DNA of 61,531 bases, the filler included, from Sluysia triapertura (lineage: Eukaryota): assembly GCA_046118255.1 (NCBI GenBank). It is 5 parts of 5 records of this genome, joined end to end, with 100 filler letters (N's around TTAATTAATTAA, not from the genome) between each part and the next. Parts side by side here need not be neighbours in the genome. Positions count along the whole stretch, not along the records: positions 47,950 to 61,531 come from JBJNIA010031051.1; 4 more parts are not named here. One strand, given 5' to 3'. The stretch's first letter is position 1. Every line of letters begins with the position of its first letter. The notes below the pieces were generated by a model. The model saw only the letters and a list, made by a program, of their open reading frames with translations, was not told the origin of the DNA and made no database searches. Below, one piece after another: positions 9,001 through 61,531 of the stretch. Both the position numbers and the translations under genes were made by a program.

Positions 9001-11604
9001 TTTGTTCCTCTTATTTGGACTCTGTTAGGTTTTCTTCGTGTACTTCTTCATCATTTTCATCTGATACATTTAACTTGTTTTTGGTTGATGTCAGATTAAT
9101 TTTATTTTCCTGTTTATCCCATCCTCGCAAAATGTCTTTAACTTTCATTCTTTCTTTTTCTATTGCTTCTATATCTTCTTTTCTTTCCATATCTTATTTA
9201 ATTATTTTATTTTAATTATGTTATTTTATTCAAAAGATTCAAAATATGTCCATAGCTTATAAAAGGTTTCATTTTCACTTTCTTGCGTTATTCTTGATAT
9301 AGCTTTTTTCTTAGTCGTTATCATAGTATAATTTTATTCTTGTAATACTCTTGCTTCTTCTTCCGTTAAATTATTTCGATTTTTCTGTATTCATTTTCTT
9401 CATAGTCTTCATCATAACTATCGTAATCTTCATGTTTTCTGTTTTTTTGTATGTCATAATTACAATTTATCTGTCCTTTACTATTTTTGTCATCTTTCTT
9501 GTCGAAATTTACTTTTCTTACAAGGCCTTGTATTCTTAATGGTTGGTAATCGTGTTACCTTACTTAAATTTTTGCTCTGGGTACTAAACTTTTATTGCAA
9601 AAGCAAATTCGTATAGAGTTTCTAATTTTTCTGTTTTCTAATTTTTATATAATATTTTGTTTTTTGAATTATTTATCTCCTTGAATGTTTGAATCGCTAC
9701 GTCTGTTAAATAATTTTGAATTATTTAATTTTGTTTCTACCTCCGTCTAGCCGTTGGCTTTTGCTAAGATGCCATACTCAAACAAAAAATCACAAAGTTC
9801 ATTTTCATTTCCGTTAAACTTAGACACATATGGCAAAATCACTGTAGGTTTAATATTATTTGAGATTTGCGACATATATTCCTTAAATTAGTTCATGGGT
9901 AAATTCATTTTTATATTCTCCAAAGAAGTGCGTCTATCGTTTTCAGATTCCTACTGTTTTTTAATCTCTATGACTGTACCTTATAGATTAAGGTATACTC
10001 TTTAATCTTACTTAAATTACATAACGCAGTCTTATACTTAATTTTAATTTGTCTTAAAGACGTATAATTGGATACTTTTACTTATATCAATGATTAATGG
10101 TACCAATTCGGGCGCCAAATGTTGCTGCTTTTCACTAAATTGAACTTACCTAAACAAAATCTACCTTAATGGTTATGAGTTCACCCAAGTTTGCGGTTTG
10201 CTTTTACTTAGATTAAGAGGCACCTTTCGGATTTTTAGCTAGAGTTTTATAAACCTTACTTAATTATTTACCATTCTATCTTGTATGATGAATTCAATAG
10301 TTTATTCAAACCCTTTTTCTTTTTAATATCAAGAACTTAGTTTTACGTAAGGGACTAATTATTATCCATGTAGTTAATCTGACTCTTATTCTTAGATTAT
10401 TGATAAATATTTGTGTCTAATAGTTTCTTGCTAGCTTTTACCTTTTTAATGTGAGCACAGATTAAATATTAATAACAAACGAACAACTTAATACCAATTT
10501 TTATTATATCACAAAACTAAGTAATAAAAATACTATATATATGCTAAAGTGTACACTTTCGATAAAAATGAAGCAAGTAATAAAAGAATAATGTTTATTG
10601 CTCTAAATTTCTTTAATTAATATTTTAAAAAATGACCTTGTCACTGAACTTATGCGAGCATAAAAATATAAATATTTTAAAGTGAGATTTTATGCCTTAC
10701 GTAAACTTATGGATTCTAATTCATAAAAAATTTCCAAAATCTAAATGTTTTCAGGATCGACAATAATATCAGAATATAAATTATCAAAGATCCAATGGTG
10801 ACACTGCTTGAAGGATGTCGATGCTAATTGATGTGTAGGTTGGAAAGATTGAGAATATTGATAAGTCTTGTTAAATATTTTTATGTGGAGTTTATGTGAA
10901 AATAGTTGTCTTTTTATACTTGAAAATTGAGCATATTTATAATTCTAAATTAATTTATTTACAAATATTAACATATTTATAAATCCAAATTGTTAATTTA
11001 TAGAAACGTTTATCTTAAGTCAAATATTAATCAATCTATTTGATAAAAATATTTCAGTTATTTCAAATTTAACATTATCAGTATAAAAATATTTATAATT
11101 TCTCACCAATTATCTGTTTCATAACTTTTTTCTTTATTGATATAATAATAATAATTATTATTATTGTAAGTAAATAATAACTGAATTTTAAATTGATATT
11201 TAGAAATATTAATGGCACTAAACTTATAAATTTGGATAGTTACACAGATAACAGTGATTGGATTCTTTCTGAAGCACGGATTCATCATCAACATACCACC
11301 GATATTATTAAAGATATACATTATCCAGTGAAGAATTTTGACAAGTCCATCAATTTAATCTCAGAACAGAGCTATAAATTAATTATTATCGTACTGATTC
11401 TAAATAGACGTAGTTTTTTCTACATTTGGATTTTAATTGTTCCATTTGCAATGTTAACCTTATTATCGATTTTGACATTTTGTATGCCTAGTACATCTAA
11501 TGAAAAACTAACAATAAGTTTATCGATTTTTATGGCATTCTCAATGTTTATGATCATGATTTCAGAAAGAATTCCTCCATCAACACAGAATGTTCCTTTA
11601 ATTG
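3060..11604 (+). CDS. Cys-loop ligand-gated ion channel, nAChR-like non-alpha subunit (partial; exons 3060-3172, 3213-3410, 11204-11604)
   Basis: Exon 1: VWYKPEFSW...IRIESKNIWIPDTYVFN. Exon 2: Cys-loop CPMDISMFPFDTQAC and loop B GSW. Exon 3: M1 (RRSFFYIWILIVP), M2 (NEKLTISLSIFMAFSMFM) and IPPSTQNVPLIG. GT..AG introns of 40 nt and 7793 nt have matching phase 2. N-terminal exons, intact M3 and M4 were not found; a possible MX remnant MSPKWCCGIIF lies at ~11750, so the gene may be decayed. Confidence 0.88.
5060..5400 (-). mobile_element. Degenerate retropepsin-like (gypsy protease) remnant
   Basis: Minus strand VRINCNPIHAYI... followed by IIIGFDTIRTLN, resembling the V.ING....A.IDTG and ILGMD motifs. 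The catalytic DTG is lost. Confidence 0.35.
5680..6400 (+). repeat. Dispersed LTR-like repeat, homologous to 60540-61531
   Basis: Shared blocks: caacaaccagg(g/t)ttgac, taaattg..agggagtt.c subrepeats, caata(t)aactttgaca, tttcctttactctactca. Confidence 0.7.
6850..10762 (-). mobile_element. Ty3/gypsy element copy A: 5' LTR, PBS, gag, chuvirus-like glycoprotein, protease (pol deleted); lies in the nAChR intron
   Basis: LTR end CA at 10121-10120 is followed by PBS TGGCGCCCGAA. Gag reads MSQISNNIKPTVILPYVSKFNGNENELCDFLFEYGILAKANG (from 9875). Env motifs: NVYQEENSFTTL..LWHCGHHSNSSI (~9000-8905), LRTNLAMAITNPDLVA, ETYLEPVTRILFP..CSSAIASEYKID, TM region ~7870-7720. Protease: RINGRIII..AATSLINEKFL and DMIMGTDVL (~7490-7240). 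The LTR start at 10762 (TGTCGA) is tentative. Confidence 0.85.
10107..10117 (-). promoter_or_regulatory. Primer-binding site complementary to the 3' end of tRNA-Lys(UUU)
   Basis: Minus strand ...GCAACA tt TGGCGCCCGAA, matching the first 11 nt of the tRNA-Lys3-type PBS, 2 nt after an LTR-terminal CA. Confidence 0.85.
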
Positions 11605-15390: not shown

Positions 15391-17419
15391 CTAAATTCAA
15401 TAGAAATAAAAAATAATGCACATAGGTGTTTAAATCATAGAAAAAATTACTAAGGGATTTAAATATTGTATATAAGAAAATTGAAAAGTTCAAAAATTTA
15501 TTTATATTTTGAAGTTTAAAATAGGTTTTCAATGATTAATCTTATTAATGTTAACAAAATACAATCAAATATTCATTACAATCCACCGATTTTATTATGT
15601 GCTGGAAGCCAGGCTAATTTGTAGAACAAAATGGGTATGAAACACAATTGTGATGAATGCATGTTAATGGAATATGTGGTACTGGTTCTTTGTAATACAA
15701 CAAATTTAGTCTTATAAGTGTATTGTGTGATATCATTTATTTGAGAGATTATATGAAATATATGTGAGAAAAGCCATTAAAAAGCTGGCGCCACTTGTGT
15801 TAGTGTTAATTTAAAAATTATTAAAAAATGTATAATTTTTCATGAATTTTCAATAAAATAGCATAAGAAGTGAAAATATAGTGTAATATAATGTGGAATG
15901 TTGTAAAGCAATCTGCCATCTTCTAACAAAAGTAATAATAACTTTATACTTTATAATATTTTAACTTATTTTATTTGATTCAAATATTTTTCTCACAAAA
16001 TGGTGGTATATTATTGAAATAACTTTGTGCATGTACTGTAAAAGCAGAAACGTTGTCTAAAACAACATGTAATATGACCTGCTTAAGCCTAAGAAACTTG
16101 CAGAAATACGAGTGGGACCAAGTGGTCCCAGCGGCGGCAAAATGGCTAAATTAGTTTGAAATCTCAATATATTTTCGATAATAAGAGTAAATATACAAAT
16201 TACTACTTATTTTTTAATCACTACAAACCCTCAATATTCTCAGTTATAAATTAATGTCTATAAATAACTTCGTATTTTCCTTCATTTCTATTTTAATTTG
16301 AATATCCTTAAAAGTATCTATTTAACAAATATATTTCATAATAGTGATTTGTTTTATTCTTATATTACAACCTACAGCACTCATTTCTAGTTCTATCTTT
16401 GACTAAACCTAACAATGTCTATTACATATTCTATTCATCAGATTAATTTTATAGTTCTTATTTCAACAGTGTACTCCAGTAAATTTTTCTTATTGGTTGA
16501 TTTTTGTGATAAAATTAAATTTAGATAAATATTGGATCATAAAATATTACACAATTTAACTAAGAATAAATATAAAAATCATTTAGTCATCAATAGTCTC
16601 ATTAATCCCTTGAGCGATTTTATAACCATAAATAAATGAGTCTCGCATAAGTAACTTGTATTTATAAAGTGTATATAGTCAAAGATGGTTAAATAAACTA
16701 GATTAAAAGCCAATTGCAGAGCAATGCAAACTCATAGATGAAACTTAATCTAAAGAAAATAAAATTTGATTACCATTATAGTAATTTGTTTAGTTGAAAA
16801 ATAAATTATAATATTTGATAATGACAATAGATGGATAAGTAATAATTCATAATTATAATTCTCTAAAGATAGGTATTTTATAATTCTCTAAATAATATTT
16901 AATATTTTATTTTTGTGAGAGATTAATAATATGTTCAGGAATAAAATGAAATAAAATTTTGATCGTAAAAAATGTATTAATACCATTATTTATTTTAATC
17001 CATTAATTATTATTTTTATTTTATTTTATTTGTATTATTTGTAAATACCATTAATAATTATCTTTTTTATTTTTATTTGTAAATATTTTTTATTCTAGAA
17101 AATAAAATATTGTAAAGATTATAATTAATTAAATTTAAATATTAGTTAAGAAATATTTAAACAATTTGTTTAAACTAATAAAATATTTAATTTGTTTAAA
17201 CGAAATAAATTTTTGTTAATAAAAATGGCGGTTATAGAAACACTATAAAAATACAAGAATTTTTATAATTTTTGGGACACAAATTTTCTGGAACAGAATT
17301 CAAATTTTGGAATAAGGAAGACAAATTGTCCATGATACAAACTATTCCTTATTGATAGAATTTACACATTACCTTGCATAGGAAAGTTTAATTTTCGACT
17401 TAAATTATATAACAAATTT

Positions 17420-18001
17420 GCAAGACCATAAAAGGGCTTGCTTAAATTAATTTTAAAAATAATTACTGAATTACTAAGACAAAGGAATTATCTTAAGTAA
17501 TTTACTAAAATCATCATTAATATATAGTTTATTTCAACTTTTTTATTGTATAAAAGATTTGCTTGTGCGATTATTAATAAATTTTCAGAGTGTACAAGGA
17601 GTTATTATATTTGTTATAGTTGTAATTAAGATCAGTTAAAGGATTTACTAGACTTTACTAAGGCTAGTTTAACGTTTAAACTATATAAAATCTTTTATTG
17701 GATACGCTAGACCATATCAGGCTAGCTTAATTGCTTATACGACTAGACCATAATTTGGCTAGTTTAACGATAATTTGAATTAAGTCTAACTGAGTAATAT
17801 AACTCACTAAGGTGTGAATTTACGAGAATACTATAACATATTACTTGTTAAGATAAGAGTAGGATTATGTTCTTAGTTTAGTTCTTCAAGCATATTAAAA
17901 ATCCTAATAGACCGCCTTCGATCAGATATAAGTCGTATCTATTAGGTGGACTCGTCACCAGATTCATATTTGCGTGTCATAAGATAGCTAAAATCTTCGC
18001 A
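17420..18001 (+). repeat. Structured LTR-like end, copy 1: four bulged hairpins, a conserved stem-loop, ends in GCA
   Basis: Hairpins at 17420-17441, 17647-17668, 17706-17726 and 17742-17763. Stem CCTAATAGA/TCTATTAGG at 17903-17946. Confidence 0.7.
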
Positions 18002-18611
18002 TGTTTATACTTTTAATTAAATTAGATTTTACATAGTGTGATGGTCACAGTAAATCCCCAAAGTTTTTTTGAATTGATTTTTTTGCTTTGCAATTATTAA
18101 AATTGTTTTTTATTTTTTTGGAGATAATTATTAATAAAATATATCAGAAAATAAAAATGTAATTACAAACTAAGGCGGGATCAGTTATAGACAAGTAGTT
18201 TTTGTTCGAAGGCGTTTTAAAAGGATTTGATAATAAATTATCGTGTTTGATAAAATTAATAATAATAATAATGTTAAAGAATCTTTAGAATATGTAGAAA
18301 TCCTACATAAAGATGTTAATCTTGTTGAAAGAATTGCTATCAATCGGAAAATCGATTGTGAAAGTGCTATTTTTGATTTTAAATTCAGTTACCACAAGTT
18401 GATAAATAAATTAATTGAAAAAAATCGTATACCAAAGCCACGAAGAAGATCAAGTATGAGTTCAAGTGAAGTTCCAGATGCCTTTAGCGAAGAAGATTAT
18501 ACCATATAATTTGATACAAATGATCCAGACTAAGAACAGATGAGAAAGATGGGCAAGAGAAATTGTAAATGATATTACAACCAATCCCAAGAAATGTTAG
18601 ACTTCGTAAAA

Positions 18612-18682
18612 TGGACTGACCGGAGATCGAATCGGGACCTCTAGTTGTGCAGTTCGATGCTCTACCACTGAGCTATCAACAC
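18612..18682 (-). pseudogene. tRNA-Cys(GCA)-derived pseudogene or SINE head
   Basis: GTGTTGATAGCTCAGTGGTAGAGCATCGAACTGCACAACTAGAGGTCCCGATTCGATCTCCGGTCAGTCCA: intact A box and D arm, CT-GCA anticodon loop, TTCGA T loop. Mismatches in the acceptor, anticodon and T stems. Confidence 0.75.
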
Positions 18683-20711: not shown

Positions 20712-23700
20712 GTAAGCTAAAACAATGGAAACTATACCTGAAAATTTATAACGAATGTTATATATGCAAGACAGAAAGTGTAGTAAAGATACAATTTATG
20801 AAGAAAGAATTGGATATTAAATTGGAATTAACTATGGAAAAGTTATTATAGAATAAGCTATTGGCCAGAACCTAATAGTACATACGGTTTGCATGATTGG
20901 GAATTCTTGGTCAAACATATTTCGATTTTTGTGATTGTGAATTTGAATGAACACGTATATAAATATTTGGCTTTAAATATGTTTGTATTTTGGATATCTT
21001 GATATAATTATACTCAAAGTTTTGTTTTAAATGTTTTGAAAGTTAAAATTATCAATTTTCTCAAAACAATATAGCGTCTAAATTAGAATTACTAGAATTG
21101 CGACTACTGACAAATTGAATTTTGTGAAATAAAATTGTGAAATACTGACTGAAATGAATAAGTATTTATAGTAACTCTTATCCAATAAGTATTTCGTTCG
21201 TATTCCAGTTAGTTGATATTTAAATATATATAAAATTAATACCTATTATTTACTTATGTAAATGATTTTTATTAAAGTTAAAAATTATTAATTTTTAAAT
21301 TTAATATTCATTTAATTTTTTACAAAAGAGTAAGACTTAAATTTATATTATTTATTCATTGTTATTATTATTCATTATTATCACTATTATTATTCCTCAA
21401 GGTAGGATGCGAACGCTATCTCACAAGGAAATAATTGTCCTCAAATTTAAAGAAATAAAATATATAATATTATTATTATAATAATAATTATAATAATTAT
21501 TATAATAATATTATAATAATGATTATTGAATTACACATTATCATAACTGTGAACTTTAAAAAAATTATTATAATAAACCACAATTATCATAGGCACTAGT
21601 CGTCATCAGTGTCTGTGCTGGGTGAGTACTATATTGATTTAGTGATGGAGAAACCGAGTGAAAATTGTCATGATGATGAAGGTTTACAAAAAATCGTAAA
21701 TATTTATCGATGTGGCCATTGTGAAACTGAGGTCGAATGTACATTATAGACAAAAAATCAAATACAAAAAAGGAAAAAATTAGTAAGTTTACCATAATTA
21801 CATATTATTTATAAGAGTATACGAGTTTTAGAAAAGGATTCCGAAGTTTTTATACAGGTATGAGCCATAAAAGTTTCATTCTCATTTCTGCCCATTGCAT
21901 TTTTGCGATAAAATCAAGCCGGAGATATTTGCAACCAGTGAACCCAAAGAAGTTCGTTTGTGTTGTATTTACACAATATTTAAGGCAGATGGCGCATGTA
22001 ATATAGCTAATGATCTTAATAAAATAAGCTAACGAAATGATAAGTCCAACAAACTCTAAAAAGATGAATAATATAACTGAAAACGTTATGTAAATTGTGT
22101 AACTAACTAAAAGTACAGAATTTTCTTGAATTTATAAGACCAGGCGTGAAAGTAAACCATCCTTAAGGGTCGGTTACTAAAACGAGGGTTATCTCAGAAT
22201 CAGAGAGGCTGTAGAGGGTGTATTTGTCGAAATATAATGAAATAATTATTTACAAAATTATTTAATAAAGGAATTAAATTTAATAATAACTACTTACAAA
22301 ATTATTTAATAAGTAGTTTTAATAATGAGAAATTAGCATATTTTATTTGACAAATGAACATGTGATAATCATTCTTAATTATTTTTGCTTAAAAATATTA
22401 TTAATATCGTAATAAATTTAATTATTTGTTAATAAATTTAAATAATGATTTGTCTAAAACCATGTGTAAAAAAATTAATTCATTTATAAGAACATTTATA
22501 AGAATTAAAGAATAATAAAAAAACGATAAGTAAAAAAGGTTAATCAAGAGTAATTTGTATAGTAGTTCTGTGTCATTCTTGGTAGAACTTTGTAAGAAAC
22601 CTATTCTAATGGTCAATTATTATTTCTTTTCTAATAATTTTTTTATCGAATTTTGTGATAATCCAAGTGACAATAATTTATTTTTAGATATTAACTAAAT
22701 AATAATTTTTTCTTATATATTATTTTATTTCTCAGCTTTTCAGTAACGAAAAGTACCCAATCAGATAATTATTTTTCTTATTATTATTTTATATTTATTT
22801 TAGATTTTCAGGTTGGTGTTTTATTATTTTTATTTTATTTATAGGGAATGATTAAATAGTTCTATCAAACAGTTTAATTAATTTTAACAAAATGAAGAAT
22901 TTGAAAAATTATTCTTATTAATTACAATAGCCAGAAACAATTAAATTCAATTGGTCAGACTGTTTTAGTGAATTTATTGATATATCCGACATTATTTTAA
23001 GAGTTGACATAAAATGAAGTAATATGTTATTAAATAACATGCTATCCTTAATCCTAATTTTAATTAGGTTTAATTAGGTTTTGGCTCGGAACTGTCTTCA
23101 CTATCTAATAATGAAAATCTTCTGACTGTTGCTTTCTGAACAATCAAATATTTTTGTTTATTTTGTTTCATTTATTCTATAGCCTTTTACCTTAGGTGGT
23201 AGCTTCTTATACTTATCAATTTTATCAAATTTGTCGGATAACAATGCATAAATTAAACTTTTTGTATTTTTTATTTTTGATTTTGTCATATTTATAGCAT
23301 TTCTAAAAATTGATTAGGAACTGTCACTTTATTATTTTCTTGGCTCATCAGACTTTTTCTCAATAGTATTAATTTTTTATTTAGTGTTTTTGTATTTGTA
23401 TCTATCGTTTGGTCTAGTTTCTCATTAATATTATCATTATCATTAATGTTTAATTTCATTCTTACCATTATCTAACAGGAATAAGAATTACTTAAACCAA
23501 TGTTATCAACAATCTCAATGTGAATCAGCAGACTTACGATGAGCCACATTATTAACAAGCTTACTCTGAATAACTATAATCATTTAAATTTCATCAGATG
23601 ACAAATTTATATAGTGAAAATATAATTTAATATCTATCATAGACAGAGCATGTAACTTAATTTAATAATCTTTTCAACTATAACATTAATCGATCCATTA

Positions 23701-26214: not shown

Positions 26215-26640
26215 TTGATGAAATCAAAGACTCAAAGTGTTACAGATTGTGAAACATGCAGTAAATTCTTCAGAATATTCGAGTATATTGATTCTAAAGA
26301 TAGTGTCACCTTTGTTTTGCTGAAAATATCTATGGTTTGCCAGTCATATAGAGTTGAAACTCGTAATAGGTGTCTGAATCATATCAAAAACTTACACAAA
26401 ATTAATATGGTTTTCAATTCAGATAATATTATTATTATTGTCTTGCATCTTTCGTTTAAATAAAGTAAAGAATTAAATGATTATTAATCTAATCAAAAGT
26501 TCAATATGCGATAACGTATCCACAAATCTATAAGACATAGCACATATAAGCTCTTGGAAAATCAAACTAAAATTATTGTGTATAATATCGGGAAGTAATT
26601 ATGGCCATTATATAAATGTGATCATTAGTAAAAAACAATC
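26215..26640 (+). pseudogene. Possible ubiquitin-specific protease (peptidase C19) remnant
   Basis: Ordered motifs SVTDCETC, CQSY..IKNL, IIIIVLHLSF (cf. ILxxHLKRF), YKLL..IIVY, and after a frameshift SGSNYGHYINV (His box). Confidence 0.4.
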
Positions 26641-27024: not shown

Positions 27025-27326
27025 GCTAGACCATAAAAGGCTAGCTTAAATTCTGATTTTTCTCATTATATGTTAGACCTTAAAAAGGCTAACTTAAAAT
27101 ATCATTCTAAATTGACTATATTTCTTATAAAGATTACGTGACAGGTTTATTAAAAAGTTTCATAAATCGCTACTTGACTATTCTTAAGCATAAATTACTA
27201 CGTGACTAAATTTAAAATCCTAATAGACCACTTTCGTTCAGATTTAAGTCGCATCTATTAGGCGAGCTGACCTCTAGAATACTTTTTGCAAGCATAAGTT
27301 AAGCTTCCTTAGATAAAATTCTTGCA
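27025..27326 (+). repeat. Structured LTR-like end, copy 2
   Basis: Hairpins at 27025-27045 and 27072-27093. Stem CCTAATAGA/TCTATTAGG at 27219-27262. Ends CTTGCA, abutting a Tc1-like TIR. Confidence 0.7.
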
Positions 27327-27418
27327 CACTTTTGATTAATAGTCTCATAGTATCCTTGAAAAATGTTGAATTTTATCACAAAAATGGTCTTTAATCTATA
27401 AATTTGGCCACCACTGTA
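27327..27418 (-). mobile_element. Tc1/mariner-type terminal inverted repeat (second copy at 56203-56290, + strand)
   Basis: Minus strand TA-CAGTGGTGGCCAAATTTATAGATTAAAGACCATTTTTGTGATAAAATT..., near-identical to 56203 onward. TA target site and CAGTG terminus. Confidence 0.7.
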
Positions 27419-30800: not shown

Positions 30801-32939
30801 TATAAAGAAATAACAGATTAATTAGCTATTAAATGGAAACTAGAGAATATTTAATTAAAATACGTAATAAAAGAAGAACTATGAACAGTAATACTTCTAA
30901 TTTGTCGTCTCTTTTAAATGCTTAAGTTAAAAAATTAATTTAAATTATTAAATTTAGTATTCCTCATATAATAAAAATGCTAAAAATTTACATATTGTAA
31001 CATAATATTTATTAAATTCTAAGGTAATGCGAATCCAAGTTAAAATAAAAAATCGTTTTAAAGTAAAATTAAAATTATTTTCATTCAGATTATAATGCTT
31101 TTCATCAATTTAAAATGAGATTTAATAGAGTTAATATAAATTCAAAATTTAACAGCAAAAAACACTTAATTTTAGATTAAAATAAAATAAATAATAATTT
31201 TAAAGCGAGATTTTATAATCAAAAATTAAATTAACCTTAAAATTGAAATTTAATATAAATAGTATTCAATAGAACATAGAAGGCAATGAATATCATTTAT
31301 TAGTATTATTATTATTGTATTATTATTATACTGTACTATTATTTATTAAGAACACAAAAATATAAAAGACAATGAATTATGTTTACTCACTATGACTACT
31401 ATTATATGCACATTATTGAATATTTACTACTATATTATCAAAGAATTATTCATTTAAATAATATTTATTGTATTGAAAATAATTATTATTGAAAATAATT
31501 ATTATTGAAAATAATTATCGTTTTTATTATTGGAAATAATTCAGATAATATTGAAAATAATTTGAATATTAAAAATTCATCGTACAAAATAGTATAAAAA
31601 GGAAATAATAATTAAAAAAACACACAACAGCAACAACACTCAGCACAACATACGCGAGAGTCGCATGAGTTAAAAGTTTATTTTGAGAACTACTTAACCA
31701 ATATTCCGAAATTTTTGATTTACCAAACTTACAAAGCGATTCAAATTACTGATCCAGCTAGGCGATTCAATCTGACAATTCAGCAAACAAATACACCGAG
31801 ACTTCAGATTATTCATCGTGAGTAAGTGATTTTTATTGCCTTTCTTTGTTTATAAACATTGATATTAAAGTTACAATTGTACATTTTATAAAATTTTGTA
31901 CCTATGTGTTTATTTTTTGTTGATTTATAAATAAACTATTCGATTCGATTTTGTTGTAGTGCCCTAAAAGAAGATAAAAGAGAAACATATACAAGATAAA
32001 ATATGCACGCTTCGAATTGAAGATAAAAAATTAATTGAGGAAAAATATTTTGAGTAAATTTCAATATTTAATTGCGTTTCCATTCCCTGTCATCGGAACG
32101 AGTATTCGAACTCAGATCTCTAAATAGGTTAAGTAAATATTAGTTTTGCGACACAGCGACATAGAAAACTATTAGCGAATACGATTACTTAAGAACTTTG
32201 TTAAGTTTCAATTAATAAATTATAAGTTTATCAATTTTCAAAAAACATAAATCTAACAATATTATAAAATTAATAGGTTATCTCTATTTTTACAAATACA
32301 TAATGTTATCAATTCACAAATATATAATGTTATCATCAAAGATTATCTTTTACATATTAAACTAAGCAAATAAGGTGGTGAAAAATAAATAAGCATTATT
32401 TATCGGTTTTAAGTTAAGAACTATTAAACAATAAAAGATTCATTTTCGAAATCAAATACTAGAAAAGAAATTGCTTACAAATTTAAATGGCACAACAAGC
32501 GATAAATATTACTAAGATGTGTTTACTGCCAAATTATGCCAAATTTCTCGAAATCTAACAAAAACAGCAAGTAAATTAATAACTACTTATAGAATTGTAT
32601 TGAAAAAGTATGATATTTATGCAATTATAAAAGATACTGTAACTAAACTAATGTGATGTTACAATTATTGAAACGAATTTCATGATTTTGTCATTAAAAC
32701 ATTTAAATATTCGTTGAAAGATTGGATTGATGCATCGAAAATCGTTCTTTAGTGATCAATTCATTCTCTCTAGACTACGAGATATTAAACGTAATAAAAA
32801 GTAATAATCACTTTTTGAATGAACACTTAAAATATGTTGATGTTTTACGTATTTTGATTAAAATGAGTTAATTTAAAATGTTTCCGGTGTTATTATCAAT
32901 CAAATATTACAGATTTCAAAACCTCTTTCAATTATATTT

Positions 32940-36306: not shown

Positions 36307-36809
36307 CAATTAATTGATTTGAGAAATAACAAATATTATCAATCAATATTCAATCATATGAACTTAGATGAGTTTTGGCTCAATGTGAAAAAATCTTTTC
36401 CATTAATTAGCCTGAAAGCAATCAAAATTTTATTACCATTTTCGTCTTCATGGTTTTATGAAATTGGCTTTTCAGCATTAACTGAAATCAAATCTAAAAA
36501 GCGAGAAAGACTTCTTAAAATTGATGATGAAATGCGAGTTTGTTTGTCGTCCTTGGACCTTCGATGGAGTCTAATTAGTTCTCAGAAGCAAGCTCATTTG
36601 TCGCACTAAATAAAATTTTATGATTGTTTTTGCTTGTTGCCCCAGTTTCTGGTTGTTGCTTTAATCTTAAAGTTTAATGGAATACAACAATTATGTTAAT
36701 TATATGATTTTATTTAATAGTCTTTTTAAAATATTTGCTTGGTGGTGTGTCGCAGAATTTTTCTAAAATAAAAAGTGTGCCGCGGCTTAAAAAAGTTTGG
36801 GAACCACTG
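36307..36809 (+). mobile_element. hAT (Buster/ZBED8-like) transposon 3' end: dimerisation domain and TIR
   Basis: FWLNVKKSFPLISLKAIKILLPFSSSWFYEIGFSAL..KSKKRERL..MRVCLS...KQAHLSH. Terminal GGGAACCACTG followed by ctctag. Confidence 0.9.
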
Positions 36810-39800
36810 CTCTAGGTATTTACATATTTCTATATATCTAAATATTTACACAAGAATTTTGTATTTTATTTTAATGTACGTATTACGCACAACTGTAAAT
36901 ATGTATTTTATTTTATTGATTTTACATCACTATGGCACTGGTGTTGCGAAATTGTATGCATTACAGCTATTATCCTTACAATTTCACTAATATGTCTTTT
37001 GTGTGGTGTATCTATGTTGTGTGATGTAGAATAAGAATTAATGTTATTGTTAGAAGAAGAGTTAAAACAAGGTTAATTAAAGTTGTCAGAATGTGATGTC
37101 TCTGGGACAAATCGAGATGGAAACATCGACAGTTACTAGTTGTTGTACAAGTTGTAGCCACTAAAATTGTAAATTGAATTATAACAATTTTGATTCGCTT
37201 AAACTTAATTAAAAAATTCACAATTTTAAGTTATAATAAAAGTGTTAAAAAGTACCACAATATTAATAAGTGAAAAAAAATTAATTTTTCGTTATTAATC
37301 AAAAGATCCGTATAGTATACAATGACAGAAATTTTACCATATCTCCTGACATCGTCCCTATGATTATATAGATATGTTAGCGGTTTGTGATCAGTGTATA
37401 AATAAACTTTCTGTCCTAATAAGTAATGTCTGAATAGTTTACATTCGTGTAAAATAGCCAGACATTCTCTTTCAATTGTAGAATAGTTCATCTCGGCCTA
37501 ATTTAGTCGTCGACTAGCGTATGCAATTACTGCTTCCGAATTATTTTTGTCTTTCTATCCGATGATTGCACCAATAGCTTAATTACTGACATCAGTAGTT
37601 AGTATAAATGGTTTATTAATATCCGGTTTTTTAATTAGTCGTTCTTTTAATTCCTTAAATTCCTTAGTCTGTTCGTCTGTCCACTTAAATTCGACATTTT
37701 TCCTTGTTAACTTTCTGAGTGGTTGTGCTATATTAGCAAAATTCTTAACAAATCTTATAATAATTAGCTTCATAGGAAACTTTGAATCTCTTTTTCATTG
37801 TCAGGTTGTGGAAATTTTACCAATTTTCTATATTTCTCGGATTGGGCTTTATTCCATCTTTTGACACTGTGTCCTAAAAACTTTTTCCTCGGCCCAAACG
37901 CATTTGGTTTGTTTAATTTTCAATCTATCTATTTTTAGTCTATTTAAAATATTGTCAATATCTTTTATATGTTTGTCGAAATCTTTAGAAAATATTATTA
38001 TGTCATCATAACATTTTTGCATCCTGATAGTACAAAATTCATGCACCTCTGGAACGTTGTAGGTGCACCAGTTAATCCGAATAGCATCTTTTCACATTCA
38101 TATAGTTCGTCGCCACGAGTAAATGCTTATGTTTTTCGTTTTCAGCGATATCGATTTGCCAATAACCGCTCTGTAAATCAAGAGTTGTAAAGTATGTGGC
38201 ATTTTCTAATTTATCCTGCATTTCATCTATCCGCGGTAAAGGGAAAACGTCTTTCCTTGTTATCATATTTAGTTCCCTAAAATCTCATCGTACCATCTTT
38301 TTTCTTGACTAATAAAACTGGAGATGAGAAAGGTGAGAAAATTGCCTTTTTCTTGATATCTATTTGTTCTTGCATAACCTTTTTGATTATTTATCGGTAT
38401 TCTGTATGGATTTTATCGGATTACTTTATCTATTATTAATGGTTTCTCCAATTTCTTGCAATTTCTCTTGGGTAACGATAAATAACACTGAACTATTGAT
38501 CTATTTGTTTCTTAGTCAAATTTTTATTAGTAATTTCTATTTCGCTATAATCTTCGTCTTGTATTTCATGTTGTAACTTTATATTACTTTTTACCTTACT
38601 TTCATTTTTATTTTCCGAAATTATGTTAATGTGTTCTGTATAGAGCCATTTATGTAATTTATTGCATACTGCATAGCTATTCCTATGTTTAACTTTTCTT
38701 GATTAACCTCTTATGCGATAAATATGATATTTCCGGTTAACAAACTGTTTGTCTTGACTGGCATTATATATTCATTTCTTTTTACTAACCACATTAGTTC
38801 GTAAACATATACATCGTCATCATCAGTGGCTCTATTTGATGGACTATATATATATATTGGTTAAAATCTAATGTTATTCCTTTAAATTGAAATAATATCT
38901 CCATTCCCATTATCATTTCTTACGGACTTTTTTTCATAACTCTTAATTTAATTTCTAACTTATTTTGTCCTAATTCCCGTATAGCTTTCATTACTCCGGT
39001 TATGTTAATTGCATTGCATGTGACTTCTGATAGATGAGAGGTATGATTAACTAAATTTTTTAATTCATCTTTATTTAAGAAACTTTCATTGATTAAGGAG
39101 GCTACTGATCTTGTATCACTTAGTGCTATTACTACTCTACCGTTTATCCTAGCATTTACTATGATTTACTATGAATCATTATAATTGTTGTTAGCGCATA
39201 TCATATATACCACACGCGGTGGTGGCGTTGAAGTAATAGGATAGTCCTTTTTTCTGATTTTCTTTAGTTGTTTCTATAGCTTTCTAAATTTCAATGTATT
39301 TTTGATTTTTTTATTATTTCTTCATTTTAACTGTTTTGTAACGTCTGTAATTGTTGTATTTATTCCGTGTATTGCCTTTCTTTTCTTAATGCATTTGCAT
39401 GGTGGTGCAAGAGGTATTTGCCAAAAACTAGAAACATCCAATTATTAATTTCCACGTAAACTCTGAGATTTTATAAATTCCGACTACTGAAAATGCTTCT
39501 GAAATTATTAACGCTATTACTTTAATTATCATATATATTAATTATCATATATATATCATAATTATTCCTATTAGTCCAGAAAACGCTTGCCCTAATATTA
39601 AAAATTTTTTCCATATTTGTTTTAATGTATCTTGTGCAGCTCTTTTAAAATGATTGCGCCCTCCATAGTAATTCGAAATTTACCTGTCCATTCTTTTCTA
39701 CTGTTGCTTTATTTACGATTTCAGTTAATATATTTCCCGCCAAGCTGCGTGAATATCATCATTCGTATAAATGCCAGAATTTTGTATATTTTTGTAGCTA

Positions 39801-40701
39801 AAATTTTTAGTTTTCCCTTTAACTCGGTTAGTCCTATTATTTCTGGAGTTTTCACCTGGCTCCTATGCGGTAATAATATCCATAAATTATCATCAATTCT
39901 ATATTCCGGCGCCATGACATTAGATCAGTGCATTAATTTTGGTTTGACTTTGTTATTTGGAAAGATTACTCTGGTTACTGGTTCGAGGTATGTTTCTGTT
40001 TTACCGTATAATATAAGTAATTCATTCGGTGGTTGACCTTAATTGCACTTCTACCTTTATACATTTGTACGTTTATAATACCTCTCTCATTACCAGACCA
40101 AAAACTCCTTATTCTAGTATTAGTAATGGGGCGACTAAGTCCGGGTTTTTAATAGCTATTGCCAATTTTGTGCGTAGAATTTCTTTTTTCATTTGACATT
40201 ACCGAGTAACCATAATTTGATAAATTTTTTCTAGAGACATCAGACCTAAATGATAGTAGAAATCGATTTTATTGTTAAAATAGGTATTCAATTTTATATT
40301 TTTCGTGTCGATGCCTTAGCTTGTTTGATTATTTTTTCTGAAAGATAAATTCCTTGATAGTTAGTTTCCGTTATTTTCTTTCCACAACGAATTACTGTTC
40401 ATTGTACCTTTTTCCATATCAAAACTCTCATTAAATGATTGTAAACTTATTCGTATGTCTTATGTGCGACAACATTATGATAGATTTTTCCTTCATATTC
40501 TATCGTTCCTTGTTCGCACGTCCCATCTATTAATACATTTCCGGCGGTTCTTGTATTATAAATTATCTTTTCATTGTTTCCCATTTTTAATTTATCTCCT
40601 TTTATTAAACTTATATAACCGGTTTAAAATGCATCTCTGCATTGCTTAGGTAATATCTTAAATGGTTTGAGTACATTTGATAATTATATTATTGATGAAT
40701 G

Positions 40702-54630: not shown

Positions 54631-55076
54631 TATTATTTATTTCGTTGATTAATAGTAGTATTTCGTGGAATAGGAATGGGACAATAAATTAGAAATTATA
54701 ATTATTATATTATTATTATTAATCCTTGTACTAAATATTTTAGAAAAATTATTTTATAGAGAAAATTAGAAATTATAATTATTATATTATTATTATTAAT
54801 TCTTGTTATAGAGAAAATTAGAAATTAGAACAGAATCTATAACTTGTAATGTACTTTTATTTTTAAAAGAAAAAATGTGATGTTAAAAATTTATACTGTA
54901 TAAATTTAATTTATTAATTATTATATCTGTGTATAAAATATTATAGAATATTATTATGTACTAAAATTTATTTTAAATATATCTAGTGTATAAAATTTAC
55001 CCAATTAAAATTTGTATAATTTTTAATTTATATTTTGTATAATATAAAATAATATAAAAGAAGAAGAAATATTAAT

Positions 55077-55200
55077 TAGACATTAATCGTTATTACACTT
55101 GGAATCGTTGTAGACATTAATCGTTATTACACTTGGAATCGTTGTAGACATTAATCGTTGTAAACATTAATCGTTGTAAAACTATTATATTTGGAATCGA
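55077..55200. repeat. Minisatellite with a 33-bp unit and shorter derivatives
   Basis: tagacattaatcgttattacacttggaatcgttg twice, then acattaatcgttgta variants. Confidence 0.8.
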
Positions 55201-57299
55201 ACAACAATAATCATATCTGTGAGTAACTATTTATTATTCTGTTTTCCACGATTTTTAATAGAATTAAACTATTTAATCAACTATTAATAAATAATTTTTC
55301 TTTATTATTATTTTGTTTTGTTTTTGCATAAATTAAATTTAAATTTTGAAAAATATTTATATAAATTTAAATTAAACAATTAATGAAGTTTTTAATAGAT
55401 TAAATTTCTTTTTTAAGAGTGTAACCACATAAAGAGATAAAACTATTAAAGATATTAATTACTAAGCACTTCCATCCTAAACATTTAGGACGAGTATTAT
55501 AAGCTCACGCCTCTAATTAAGTTTAATATTAAGTGATAACCTTAGGAGTATAAAACAATCGTAAATTTTATAAAGTAATTTGAATTGATAACGTATAGTG
55601 AGGATTTTAATAATATAAAATAATATTTGAATATTTTGGCAATCGATAAGTTAAATCTAAAATTCTTAAGGAAAAAAGCGTAAAGTAATCGAATTAAAAG
55701 ACAGTGAGGAAACGAACATTTAAGAAAGAAATTTATTACACTTTGCAAAGTTATTTATTACAGTTGTATATTGTAGTAAAACAATTAAGAACTAATTTCT
55801 AATAATTTCAAGTAGTATATGCTTTGTTCCAGATCAGATCTCATCATTTTAATTATTTCTCTTTCTACTTACTAATCTCATCTTTTCATTTCTATATTTA
55901 ATAAAATCATTGACTTCTGCATTATTCTCATGCTATTCTCTATAAATTGTATTTAAAAAACTTACATTTTCGATTTATTATTATTAGTTAATATTTATCT
56001 ATTAACTATTGTGAATATATAAATATTAAATAATAATTGTCTTAATATTAAAAATTCTATTTATGTTATTATTTTATTACTATTAATATTATTATTTTTA
56101 CTACTATTATTATTACTATTAATGTAAGCATAGTTACGGTTACTATTTAATAATAAATTTTTAATGATTTGGATTTACACAAAAAAAATCAGTGTTGACA
56201 ATCAGTGGTGTTCCAAATTATTAGACTAAAGACCATTTTTGTGATAAAATTTAACATTTTTCAAGGATACTATGAAACTATTAATTAAAAGCGTATAAAT
56301 ACGTGCAATTTACCGACAGTTGTCACGGAAAATGGAAAATAACTTCTCCCAGAAAAAACTGTCGAAAGTAAAATACTAATAAATTTTAAAAACAAATTAT
56401 GATCGCAGGTTTTTGCATAGAGAACCACATCACTTTATTTACAAATTCATTTACTTTTTCACCTAATCTTGTGTGGTGATTTAGGTTCCTCTCACACGAT
56501 AATCATAACAAAATTCATTATTATCATAGTTATCATTATTTACACCATCAGCCTTACCATCATCATTATTATTATTATTTTTATTTTGATTATTTTTGTT
56601 AATTTTTTGTATTACTATTTTTAATTATTTAATATTATTATTATTTTCAGAATAGTACATTTTATGTACGTTTTATGTAAATTTGCAGATATGTTTTGGT
56701 TTTGTGTAAATATTAAAATTTTTAAAAATTTTAAATTATTATTTTTATTATAATAAATATTAAAAATATAAATATTAAAAAAACAATAAATATTAAAAAT
56801 GTAAATATTAAAAATTATTAGGTAAAAAATTTGTTTTTGTTTAAAATTATTAATTTATTTAAAATTATAAAGAAAATTTGTTAAATTATTTAGGTTAATT
56901 AGTAAACAAAGAAGAAATTAAATTAGGAAAATAATAAATAAATGGTTAAAAATTTTTAGAGAAAAACAGAAAAATCGGAGACATAATATAAAGTCATTTT
57001 CAGAGAAGATTATTACCGAAGAAAGAAAATCAATGCTTATCGAGTAATTTTTTATTGGTAGGTTTCATCATATTCACCGTAATTTCGCGAATATTAAAAT
57101 CAACTTAAAATCTCGTAACATTTTGTATTAACACCTTAAAGAGGATTTGGTATTCTAAATTTAAACTCTATCATAATCAATTTGTCAATTGAATTATTAA
57201 AATTTTATCATTATTGTAGTCGTGCATTTATTAGTCGCACATTTTTGCTTGTTATTAGTTTAATACATCGAGTAAGATTTTAACTTACTTAATCCTTTT

Positions 57300-57564
57300 A
57301 AATAACAAATTCGATTTCTAAGAAACACCTTAATAAAAGGGTTATGTAATTTGTATACTCGAATCAAATTAATTTATTAAAAGTAACGTTAACCGTTTGT
57401 TGTAAGATATAGCAAAGGCTTATTAAGTGAAGTTATAAGTTATAAAAAGTCCTAATAATACACCTTCAACAGTGGTATAAATTGTATGTATTAGGCGGAC
57501 CGACTTCTTAGATATTTAGCAGGTAAGATTAAGATTTTTAAGTTTCAATAGAAATACCCTTGCA
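57300..57564 (+). repeat. Structured LTR-like end, copy 3 (hairpins degenerate)
   Basis: CCTAATAATAC...GTATGTATTAGG stem at 57451-57495, then GGCGGACCGAC; ends CTTGCA. Confidence 0.6.
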
Positions 57565-57784
57565 TTGTTATTATGGTTTTGTTTAATTAAATTTGTTTTT
57601 TTGCTGCATTGTCAAAAATTCTAAAATGTTATTATCATGTAGTGGAGATGGAAATCATGTAGTTACATATACTAATATTTTCAAGATGATATTAGCAAAT
57701 CAGAAGATAATATGGTATTACTTTCTCCAAAACATGAAGATTTGTGTGGATGATGCATGTTTATTTATGGTTTAAGTAATTACG

Positions 57785-58345
57785 TTGCTGATTCAAATAA
57801 ATCCATTATTATTCCTTTCAAAATGGTCTTTGATTCGAATAAATCCAACCGAGTTAAGAAACTCAACTTTAAATTCAAATGATCTGATTACAGAACATAT
57901 AAATCAGAAAAGGAATAATTTAAATTTATTCGTAGAACAATATATTAAGAGTAAGCTGGTCGGTTCGATTAGTGGAACCTTTATAATATTTTGTACTCAG
58001 CAGATGTCATCAAAATTTCGAAGCAATTTAAAGGAAGGAAAAGGCCTAAAAGATATAAATAATGTAAAACTCGTAGATCTAGTTAAAGTAATACAATTAA
58101 ATGCTTTTAAGTACAAATGTTTGAATGTTGTAGATATAATTTATACATGTGTAAATGCTGAAGATATAATTGATGTAAAAGATATGCATACTCTTATGTA
58201 TGAATGCTTAAACATTGTAGATACAAACTATTTGAAAGATTTTTACGTAATAATTTATAAATACTCTAATTTTGTAGCTCTAAAAGATCTTTACGTAATA
58301 AAATACAGATTTATTGTTAGTGTAAATATAAAAGATGTTACATAA
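57785..58345 (+). other. 186-codon open frame with loose internal repeats, unknown function
   Basis: Long ORF for this AT content with repeats (YKCLNVVD / YECLNIVD / KDxYV). Lies between two structured LTR-like ends. No recognised domain. Confidence 0.3.
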
Positions 58346-58969
58346 TCTATGTTTCTAATGTAATTGTAAGACTTTCGTGCAACTATTTATAATTGTCAGA
58401 ATTAACATCGTATGAAACTTTTGTATATTTGTATTTTATTTATTTATTATTATTATTATATTTCTGTATATTTGTTATTATTATATTTTAGAAAAATTTT
58501 AAATATTATTATTATATTTTGAAAAAATTATATTTTAGAAAAACCTTAAATACTATATTTTAATAAAATAAAAATGATTAAAATAAAATATTTTAATTAA
58601 AAAATAAAATAAAAATAATCAAAATAAAATAAAATTAATAATTTTATTGTTTTATTAAATTAAAATTACTTTAACAAAGAAAATTGTTTTATCAAATTAA
58701 ATTATTTATTTATTAAAGAAAATTCAAGATGGAGAAACAAAATTAATATATAAGTAAGCAAAATTTCATTTAAAAAACACAATTTAGAATTAGATTTCAA
58801 GTATTAAGAGTCTAAAAGTTGAAGAAGTAATTAACTTGGAAAACAATTTTGCAGAAGATTATCAAGAAATTCACTGTCGATTTTAATTAACAAGTAATTT
58901 TAATTATTGTAAGGTCGATTCACCATTCGGGAATCCTAAAATTTACTGAAAATCTATTTTTTATTTCGA

Positions 58970-59545
58970 GCAACACCATACAAAGGGTTGCGTAACGTTT
59001 ATTTTAAAATACGAAAGTACCAACTCCGGTTGAGTAACTTGAATTAAATTGTTATTTTTATTATACATATACATATATACATACGTGTTAATAAGTTTTA
59101 GTTTTTTAAGTATACGTTTAATAGATATTTGCATTACATGTAGAGTTTTTAATTAATTTAAAAGAATATTTTCAACAAGCAACACCATAAAAAGAGTTGC
59201 GTAAATTCTAAATTCATAAAAACAGTTATCATAAGCAACACCATAAAAAGCGTTGCGTAAGTATAAAATCATAAAGACATTTTAAAGCAACTCCATAAAA
59301 AGGGTTGCGAAATCATTAATTATTCTAACAAAAGCAACACCATAAAAAGGGTTGCGTAATATATATAAAATTCGAATTAATTTAATTAATAAACTGATTA
59401 TCTGTAAGTTAAAGTGTTAGATAAGCACTAAGTATAAGAAATTATAATAAATCCTAATAATACGTCTCCAATTTTGGTATAAAGCGTATATATTAGGCTA
59501 ACCGACTCTTCAGATAATTTGCTTAAGTATAAGAAAATACTAGCA
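58970..59545 (+). repeat. Structured LTR-like end, copy 4: five GCAAC-type bulged hairpins plus the conserved stem-loop
   Basis: GCAACACCATAAAAAGGGTTGC variants at 58970, 59179, 59235, 59287 and 59334. Stem at 59453-59497. Ends TAGCA. Confidence 0.75.
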
Positions 59546-60539: not shown

Positions 60540-61531
60540 AATAGCAACAACCAGGTTTGACGCAACAGACACTAACAATATCTAGAAAATTAATGGTAAT
60601 TATGTTATTTAAATATTTTAGGTCAACGTAACAAAATGTGACCACGATTACAATAAAATCTATTGGTAACAATAACTTTAAAGAAAAACTTAACAGTAAT
60701 TTCTAAAGATAAAACACTTAGTATTTTGATAAATTAAATTGCGTAGGGAGTTCCTATTCAATTCACCTTAAAATAGCTGAAAATTCAAATGTAATTTAAA
60801 TAAAATCTTCAACAAAATTACGTAAATTGTTTCTCAATTAATTACCTTAAAAATAACTAAACATCAAATATAATCTTAATAAAAAAACTGTGTAGGGATT
60901 TTCTTCTAAAAGTATCTTAAAAATATCTAAAAATTAAATATTATCGTTAACAAAAATTGCGTAGGGAGTTGCTTACAAAATTACCTTAATATGTCTAAAA
61001 TTAAATATTCACAAAAATTACTTGGAGTGTTTCCCATAAAACTATTTTAGTAATAACAAAAAATCAAATTTTAAAAATTTACAAAAATTGCGTGGGTTAT
61101 TTCTCACAAGACTATTTTAATAGTAACAAAAAATGAATCAAATTAATAGCTTATATAATCTATTATATATAATATAATATATAATCTATTACTTATCTTA
61201 TTTTACTATAATAAAATAAAAAAAATAAATGAAAACTTTACCCTATACATGGGTCTTCATACCATTGTGTCATTGTACCATTGTGTCATCATTGTTATTG
61301 TGTTGTAAAAATTTTGAAATCTTTATGTTATACTCTCTCATCATCCAATCACTTCACAGTCTCACAACCAAACACTCTCTCACATAAATCATCCAAACCT
61401 CTTTGAGAATCAAACCGGCAATAACAACTTTGACAATTACATCGTATTGTCTGGCAAACTTTATTAGGTACAAAACATAGAAATCTGATTTATTATCAAC
61501 CATCATTTCCTTTTACTCTACTCAGTCTATT
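60540..61531 (+). repeat. Dispersed LTR-like repeat with internal subrepeats, homologous to 5680-6400
   Basis: aaattgcgtagggagtt.. units at ~60736, 60890, 60955 and 61085. The 3' part aligns by eye with 6150-6330. Confidence 0.7.

Follow-up and report, generated by a model that had tools for sequence, protein, structure and literature searches.

Arrays of operator-like hairpins are known in nature from RNA viruses, and also exist as engineered tags. Retroviral and Ty3/gypsy psi leaders contain several stem-loops within a long 5' leader, and to our knowledge these loops are not repeats of one bulged-A shape. The operator of phage MS2 has a spacing of 5 bp, an unpaired A and 2 bp. Binding in the MS2 system is described as requiring an ANCA-type tetraloop (PMC4403262), while Q-beta, a relative of MS2 like PP7, has an operator with a 3-nt loop and a 4-bp upper stem (PMC11724954). 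[quoted passage not shown] We found no operator-like hairpin arrays described for animal transposons, either in Rfam or in a search of the text of papers, and we found nothing on such motifs in a planarian genome paper (bioRxiv 10.1101/2023.12.22.572568). The feature described here is probably a variation on this known kind of RNA signal, in an unclassified animal repeat.

The window, meaning the whole stretch of DNA that was analysed, is 61,531 nucleotides long (Sluysia triapertura, GCA_046118255.1) and consists of 5 pieces separated by N-linkers that carry a six-frame stop word. Its G+C content is about 25 %. The exons in it belong to a ligand-gated ion channel, a CNH protein and a MYST acetyltransferase, and it also contains gypsy integrase and a viral-type fusion protein fragment; we therefore regard it as animal DNA with many dead retroelements. 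A homologue search with the CNH exon gave no match. On the - strand lie two broken gypsy elements (6900-10660 and 37400-40700) that are related, with a likeness of 68-80 % in patches; the former has a clear LTR end and a PBS at 10117. A fragment at 43688-43987 resembles a chuviral fusion glycoprotein, and 36307-36809 is the 3' end of a hAT transposase-like frame, presumably of the Buster/Charlie type, with a terminal inverted repeat at 36809. ARAGORN called no tRNA, Rfam gave 0 matches at gathering score over the whole window (sub-threshold matches only, E 1.8-6.3), and five loose hammerhead ribozyme core matches were obtained, 0 of them inside the hairpin units. A bacterial promoter scan stayed at chance level and is irrelevant here.

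The original prediction described eleven hairpins at three loci. All eleven were found again with the same coordinates and arms; with three missed copies and two decayed ones added, they fall into four units instead of three loci. Every copy has the same orientation, on the + strand, and the length of the stem is constant. Unit 4 has six hairpins, beginning with a missed copy with GATTC/GAATC arms and a 4-nt loop (58917-58935). The remaining five share GCAAC/GTTGC arms: one is the second member of an upstream pair (58970-58991) and four form a cluster at 59179-59200 (upper stem CC/GA), 59235-59256 (upper stem CC/GC), 59287-59308 (T replaces the unpaired A) and 59334-59355. Unit 1 contains a missed copy with 4/5 pairs (ACATT/AAAGT, 17366-17387), followed by GCAAG/CTTGC (17420-17441), ACTAG/CTAGT with a U-G pair in the upper stem (17647-17668), GCTAG/CTAGC (17706-17726) and a second ACTAG/CTAGT (17742-17763). 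The two hairpins of unit 2 are GCTAG/CTAGC (27025-27045) and GTTAG/CTAAC (27072-27093). Unit 3 is decayed; its missed copy, TATTC/GAATA (57071-57093), is the counterpart of 58917 with the first pair compensated, and its two decayed hairpins (57128-57149 and 57322-57345) are the counterparts of 58970 and 59334. A lone hairpin of the same shape with a reversed upper stem (GG/CC) lies on the - strand at 20878-20858, possibly by chance.

Such hairpins are far more frequent than in shuffled sequence. The strict shape (5 Watson-Crick pairs, a 1-nt 5' bulge, CC/GG and a loop of 6-7) occurs 8 times in the window; 60 block-wise dinucleotide shuffles gave 0.12 on average and at most 2. A wider shape (A, CC, loop 3-10) gives 11, whereas 100 shuffles averaged 1.28 and never exceeded 4. 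To avoid selecting hairpins by their pairing, we also used a pairing-blind motif consisting of A, CC, a loop beginning WTA, GG, five free letters and KTAA. It matches seven times (mean of 0.04 matches in 100 shuffles), and all seven matches have 5/5 Watson-Crick pairs. A model built from the 14 copies recovers all 14; the next hit is a decayed one (57318-57353, E 0.12) and nothing further scores below E 1.

The unpaired A is found in 13 of the 14 copies, and one C and one G are invariant in all 14. RNAalifold pairs this C with this G, and the A faces G (11 copies), C (2) or A (1). Since the opposite base is never U, some copies could equally have a 1x1 mismatch in place of a bulge. The unpaired A of the original prediction is borne out; its single 5'-side bulge is a predicted geometry. 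Loops measure 4-9 nt across the enlarged set and 4-8 nt in intact copies, and are poorly conserved; thirteen of 14 are 6-8 nt long and the single 4-nt loop ends in C, without a final A. The spacers had been described as unconserved. They are not wholly free, for a KTAA flank follows the stem on its 3' side in 12/14 copies, and two spacers of the array at 59 kb have 21/29 letters in common. A Watson-Crick pair just below the stem is present in only 1/14 copies.

Compared with the described systems, the predicted likeness to the MS2 operator holds for the variable stem and for the constant place of the unpaired A (5 bp + A + 2 bp) and fails for the loop, where the ANCA-type tetraloop is absent. 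We conclude from these wrong loops that the hairpins are not MS2 operators. The Q-beta operator differs in its 3-nt loop and 4-bp upper stem, against 4-8 nt loops in the intact copies here. Judged by this comparison, the yeast L-A encapsidation hairpin is the best analogue: the 5'-side A and the C and G near the loop are all present here, again in several copies. The L-A signal, however, belongs to the RNA of a cytoplasmic dsRNA virus, in which one or two per molecule are placed close to the 3' end, whereas here up to six hairpins per unit are found in nuclear DNA repeats, in a predicted 5' leader and with a KUAA flank. No totivirus-type Gag-Pol gene was found near the units. Two hairpin patterns searched against viral contigs and one against metagenomes gave 0 matches and a phage collection gave none; the pattern of a terminal stem-loop, described below, gave one chance match in a bacterial efflux operon with no hairpin nearby. 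Going by sequence and predicted fold, the hairpins resemble bulged-A coat or capsid-binding hairpins yet belong to no such family.

Where intact, the units have a common layout: a TATA-like site, a hairpin pair, a gap, a cluster of 2-4 hairpins and a conserved 45-nt stem-loop. The TATA-like site and predicted leader span 17244-17988 in unit 1, 56988-57536 in unit 3 and 58747-59538 in unit 4, while the upstream part of unit 2 is broken by high-depth repeats and has a loose YY1/TATA-like pair at 26584-26615. The upstream hairpin pair of units 1, 3 and 4 is spaced by 53-57 nt. Its positions relative to the stem-loop match between unit 1 (-537/-483) and unit 4 (-536/-483), yet these two units align only at motifs. 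Unit 3 is about 69 % identical to unit 4 across the last 200 nt. The terminal stem-loops (17903-17946, 27219-27262, 57451-57495 and 59453-59497, all +) begin 119-161 nt downstream of the start of the last hairpin and have an invariant 7-bp closing stem in all four units (CCTAATA/TATTAGG in unit 4). They end about 40 nt before the end of homology, which stops about 85 nt past the stem-loop start, the flanks thereafter differing in each unit. Short stems that share the closing words of the terminal stem-loop, CCTAA/TTAGG, also occur at 55468-55481, 56461-56486 and 23053-23078. We rejected a protein-coding role of the terminal stem-loop, as it differs by one base between units 1/2 and 3/4 and contains stops.

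A YY1-like word followed by a TATA-like word occurs three times in the window, in each case on the + strand and at the head of a unit (1, 2 and 4), compared to 0.24 per shuffle; this pattern was drawn up after inspection of units 1, 3 and 4, and unit 3 has only a looser version. In unit 4 the words lie at 58726 and 58747. The YY1-type word of unit 1, at 17222, is exact and fits the consensus as given in PMC1904287.

The repeat has many other copies in the genome. We mapped contigs of one public sequencing run, possibly the source data of the assembly, onto unit 2 only. The unique flanks of unit 2 have a depth of 24, a summed depth that does not equal copy number, and coverage at the listed variant positions is 28 and 56 contigs for the hairpin region and 105-112 for the stem-loop. 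In 11 of the 15 joints shown (20 are listed), the hairpin block is joined to the block that precedes the stem-loop, at close to single-copy depth in each case; the other copies thus retain both blocks with a different spacer between them. None of the 40 substitutions shown, out of 135, affects a hairpin stem or the outer stem of the stem-loop. At 27055-27111, around the second hairpin of unit 2, depth rises to about 36-54x that of adjacent bins, mostly with G as the first base of the loop; the excess hints that a very abundant family carries this hairpin. A 91-bp repeat with a hAT-like CAGTGG end and very high depth is present in inverted copies at 27326-27416 and 56203-56294 (90 % identical), and a possible decayed copy lies after unit 1, near 18005-18045. 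We considered unit 2 as a hAT-MITE and rejected this, because the 91-bp segment has its own loose ends and a far higher depth.

The lower stem was predicted to change while staying paired, and the enlarged set agrees: compensated changes are seen at all five lower pairs, with 69/70 cells Watson-Crick. Over the 14 copies, 95.9 % of 98 cells are paired compared to 69.1 % after shuffling, and the covariation score is 0.673 compared to 0.183 (slid controls at most 0.132), while a count of five pairs changing on both sides was reached by 54/500 shuffles. These measures overstate the number of events, since the copies are kin and the five arm types first described are joined by four single steps, to which the upstream-most hairpins add few more. 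Five of the eleven originally described copies are recent tandem duplicates and hence not independent. One could imagine a neutral by-product, in which tandem duplication and arm-to-arm template switching keep the stems matched without selection. Tandem gains of hairpins in two contigs of the run and the five near-identical copies in unit 4 are in line with such a process. Correction between the arms would erase the unpaired A as well, yet 13/14 copies retain it. Hairpin positions with respect to the stem-loop persist even between units that have ceased to align, and the loss of ATG described below would be left unexplained. We consider a neutral origin very improbable.

The strand on which the hairpins act is not fixed by wobble pairs, of which about three favour + and one favours -, or by folding energies. 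The avoidance of upstream ATG is a mark of a scanned 5' leader. Counting from the TATA-like site to the end of homology (in unit 2 just the 357 nt that lie beyond the inserted repeats), we found 8 ATG on the + strand in the 2353 nt of the four units, compared to 43.4 expected from mononucleotides and 27.3 from dinucleotide shuffles. The - strand has 46 compared to 40.7 expected, a normal number. Unit 1 has 2 ATG in 715 nt (14.1 expected), unit 3 has 3 in 519 nt (9.8 expected) and unit 4 has 1 in 762 nt (13.8 expected). With hairpins masked and borders set from the first hairpin, without any TATA guess, the counts are 3 compared to 29.0 on the + strand and 28 compared to 27.4 on the - strand.

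ATG is the most depleted of the 64 triplets on the + strand of the units. G follows AT in only 5/235 cases, while it follows TT in 39/281 and GT in 13/100, both as window-wide; it is somewhat low after CT (7/93), and TTG and GTG show no depletion. Taken singly, units 2 and 3 have an ATG loss that is not significant against dinucleotide shuffles (P 0.14 and 0.12). Likewise, a blind sliding scan of the window flagged 8 ATG-poor regions including units 1 and 4 and left units 2 and 3 unflagged. ATG reappears directly after the stem-loop of unit 3, where a frame of about 240 codons starts. A second promoter within the terminal stem-loop is disfavoured, as the ATG loss starts about 600 nt upstream. 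Taken together, these results suggest that the + strand of the units is likely a long, scanned 5' leader, and the one-strand loss leads us to infer that it is as + strand RNA, with the A on the 5' side, that the hairpins act.

Further ATG-poor stretches may be long leaders as well: 55001-55600 (+), 31701-32300 (+), 4531-3932 (-) and 29631-28682 (-), the last running into a MYST exon. The - strand from 61231 to 59932 is strongly ATG-poor and could likewise hold a long leader, one that faces unit 4. Six ~70-nt units make up a second hairpin array, different from the first, next to a conserved block (60729-61122 and 5733-6325); 60931-61529 is 63 % identical to 5733-6325. The stems of this second array have G-U pairs on the + strand and A-C on the - strand, which conflicts with a leader on the - strand.

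Alternatively, the hairpins may act at the level of DNA, where a rolling-circle or replication protein would recognise them as single strands or cruciforms, or where they would be palindromic enhancer sites. Folding as DNA is favourable too (-3.1 to -6.3 kcal/mol), the terminal stem-loop contains a TATA-like word with YYAGA 33-34 nt later in 4/4 units, and two copies (17420 and 27025) hold a CC-W6-GG box, which we take to be a CArG motif. There is also a precedent in baculoviruses, whose homologous regions are arrays of imperfect palindromes described as serving as origins and enhancers (PMC6669502). DNA action, however, predicts no one-strand loss of ATG through the array. The arms vary within one array yet stay paired, which a double-strand site does not need, the flank is one-sided, and the inner and outer centres of symmetry differ. 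We regard DNA action as improbable. Covariation, the pairing-blind motif, the ATG loss and the one-sided flank support the selection on RNA structure that the original prediction proposed, and also the + strand and a protein-binding role at the level of RNA.

The hairpins had also been placed in an LTR, as sites for Gag binding, and the units accordingly could be old solo LTRs with the hairpins in the R-U5 of a decayed gypsy-type element, where they would serve reverse transcription, 3'-end formation or a psi function. The sliding scan found the LTR part of the gypsy element upstream of the PBS at 10117 to be ATG-poor as well. The stop of homology shortly after the stem-loop, with differing flanks, points the same way. 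Gypsy elements, furthermore, are reported to dominate the LTR content of planarians (bioRxiv 10.64898/2025.12.11.693146), which bears on this genome if it is a planarian's. The LTR placement nevertheless was not confirmed. We found 12 TG..CA/TSD candidates, at unrelated positions across the units (no null was computed and the copies are old), no PBS-like site at unit ends and no PPT at unit starts, and no gag match. The recognisable gypsy elements of the window contain no such hairpin, and a sense frame of about 240 codons directly after unit 3 is at odds with a solo LTR. This explanation has, in our judgement, a low probability.

The likeness to psi leaders consists of several stem-loops in a long 5' leader, here with no PBS, LTR pair or gag found. 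A giant gypsy-type element is a possible carrier of the units by analogy with planarians, in which such elements are described as having accessory frames and as decayed in one Dugesia species (PMC6431247). DINE-1/HINE Helentrons are likewise non-coding dispersed repeats with conserved inverted repeats; in the units, the 45-nt stem-loop lies near the end of homology. Helentrons of this kind are described with inverted repeats in subterminal position at either end, a TT insertion site and a single short palindrome that lies 8-35 nt from the 3' end; internal arrays and an ATG-free strand are not among the features given in that account (PMC4067079). Here the bulged hairpins are internal, 119-537 nt upstream of the stem-loop.

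The units are followed by different sequences. After unit 3, an intronless + strand frame of about 240 codons with one internal stop (57626-58345) starts 175 nt after the stem-loop start. It belongs to no known family: a search of 1.84 billion representatives gave no true homologue and only two weak, repeat-driven matches. A single-sequence structure model of the downstream frame was unusable (pLDDT 34). A weak period of about 19 residues is visible in the last third of 57776-58345. Unit 1 is followed by a decayed + strand frame (18157-18509) with stops, a frameshift and no family match, which ends at a tRNA-like or SINE-like stretch (18610-18680, - strand) that ARAGORN did not call. No sense frame was found after units 2 and 4. 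The frames do not resemble each other and match no Pfam family, gag or homologue in searches that a fast-evolving Gag can escape. LTR-mediated chimeric retrocopies, in which an element-derived front end is fused to differing intronless frames (as described in PMC5131818), share with the units the common front end before different frames; here neither a parent gene nor a flanking LTR pair was found.

The hairpins, the compensated stems, the common layout, the one-strand loss of ATG and the other genomic copies are observed. That the hairpins are sites for a protein in an RNA leader is, in our view, highly probable. Given such sites, a role in packaging has about an even chance, and we tentatively propose, at somewhat less than even confidence, that the hairpins are docking sites in a + strand RNA leader for a protein that singles out this RNA to be packaged and copied. 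Transcription of the + strand RNA would start from a Pol II promoter at the YY1-like/TATA-like site, and ribosomes would scan its 430-680-nt 5' leader, in which the hairpins would lie. What the protein reads is probably the unpaired A together with the C-G pair that borders the loop and a single-stranded KUAA 3' of the stem; the 5-bp lower stem would act as a scaffold of fixed length and free sequence. Each hairpin may bind one protein subunit or dimer, giving multivalent binding with up to six sites over 400 nt, and the bound protein would select the leader RNA for packaging and copying. Least certain is the partner, which might be a capsid or nucleocapsid-type protein encoded by an element, in cis or in trans. 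As the leader is present in many copies and its blocks outlast the spacers, the simplest selective reason would be that binding aids the packaging and copying of its own RNA.

The main rival of packaging is translational control. The same RNA leader would then hold sites through which a host or element RNA-binding protein controls translation or localisation, with no role in packaging, comparable to the phage operator or the iron-responsive element. The ATG loss shows a leader kept open for scanning, different frames stand behind the same leader, and the search for a capsid gene was negative, all of which suit such control. Steric repressors usually act near the cap, however, while the hairpins lie 50-560 nt from the predicted start, and their folding is weak (-4.8 to -9.3 kcal/mol as RNA), so docking would suit them better than structural blocking. 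The many genomic copies of the leader are also easier to explain if it aids its own copying. We regard translational control as rather unlikely.

The packaging proposal has its own difficulties. Nothing linked to the units was recognised as a partner protein, gag or reverse transcriptase, nor did we find a PBS, a PPT or consistent termini for them. The gypsy elements of the window are without the hairpin, and no sense frame was found behind units 2 and 4. The kinship that inflates the covariation measures (with the 54/500 shuffles), the P values of units 2 and 3 alone, the post hoc YY1/TATA pattern, the wobble pairs that leave the strand unfixed and the possible identity of the mapped run with the source data set count against it as well.

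We further speculate, as a broader idea that is itself unlikely, that an undescribed class of animal mobile cassettes carries a virus-style operator array, made of the unpaired A, the C-G pair, a KUAA foot and a stem of free sequence, in a long start-codon-free leader as a portable address label. A capsid-like protein encoded by the element would package and copy any RNA bearing the label and so spread the leader before unrelated frames. The ATG-depletion test can be reused to determine the strand and transcript status of other hairpin repeats in the genome. If the packaging proposal is true, the array would provide bait for the partner protein and possibly a new RNA-tag pair, and would represent a compact and testable recognition code by which a mobile element marks its own RNA.
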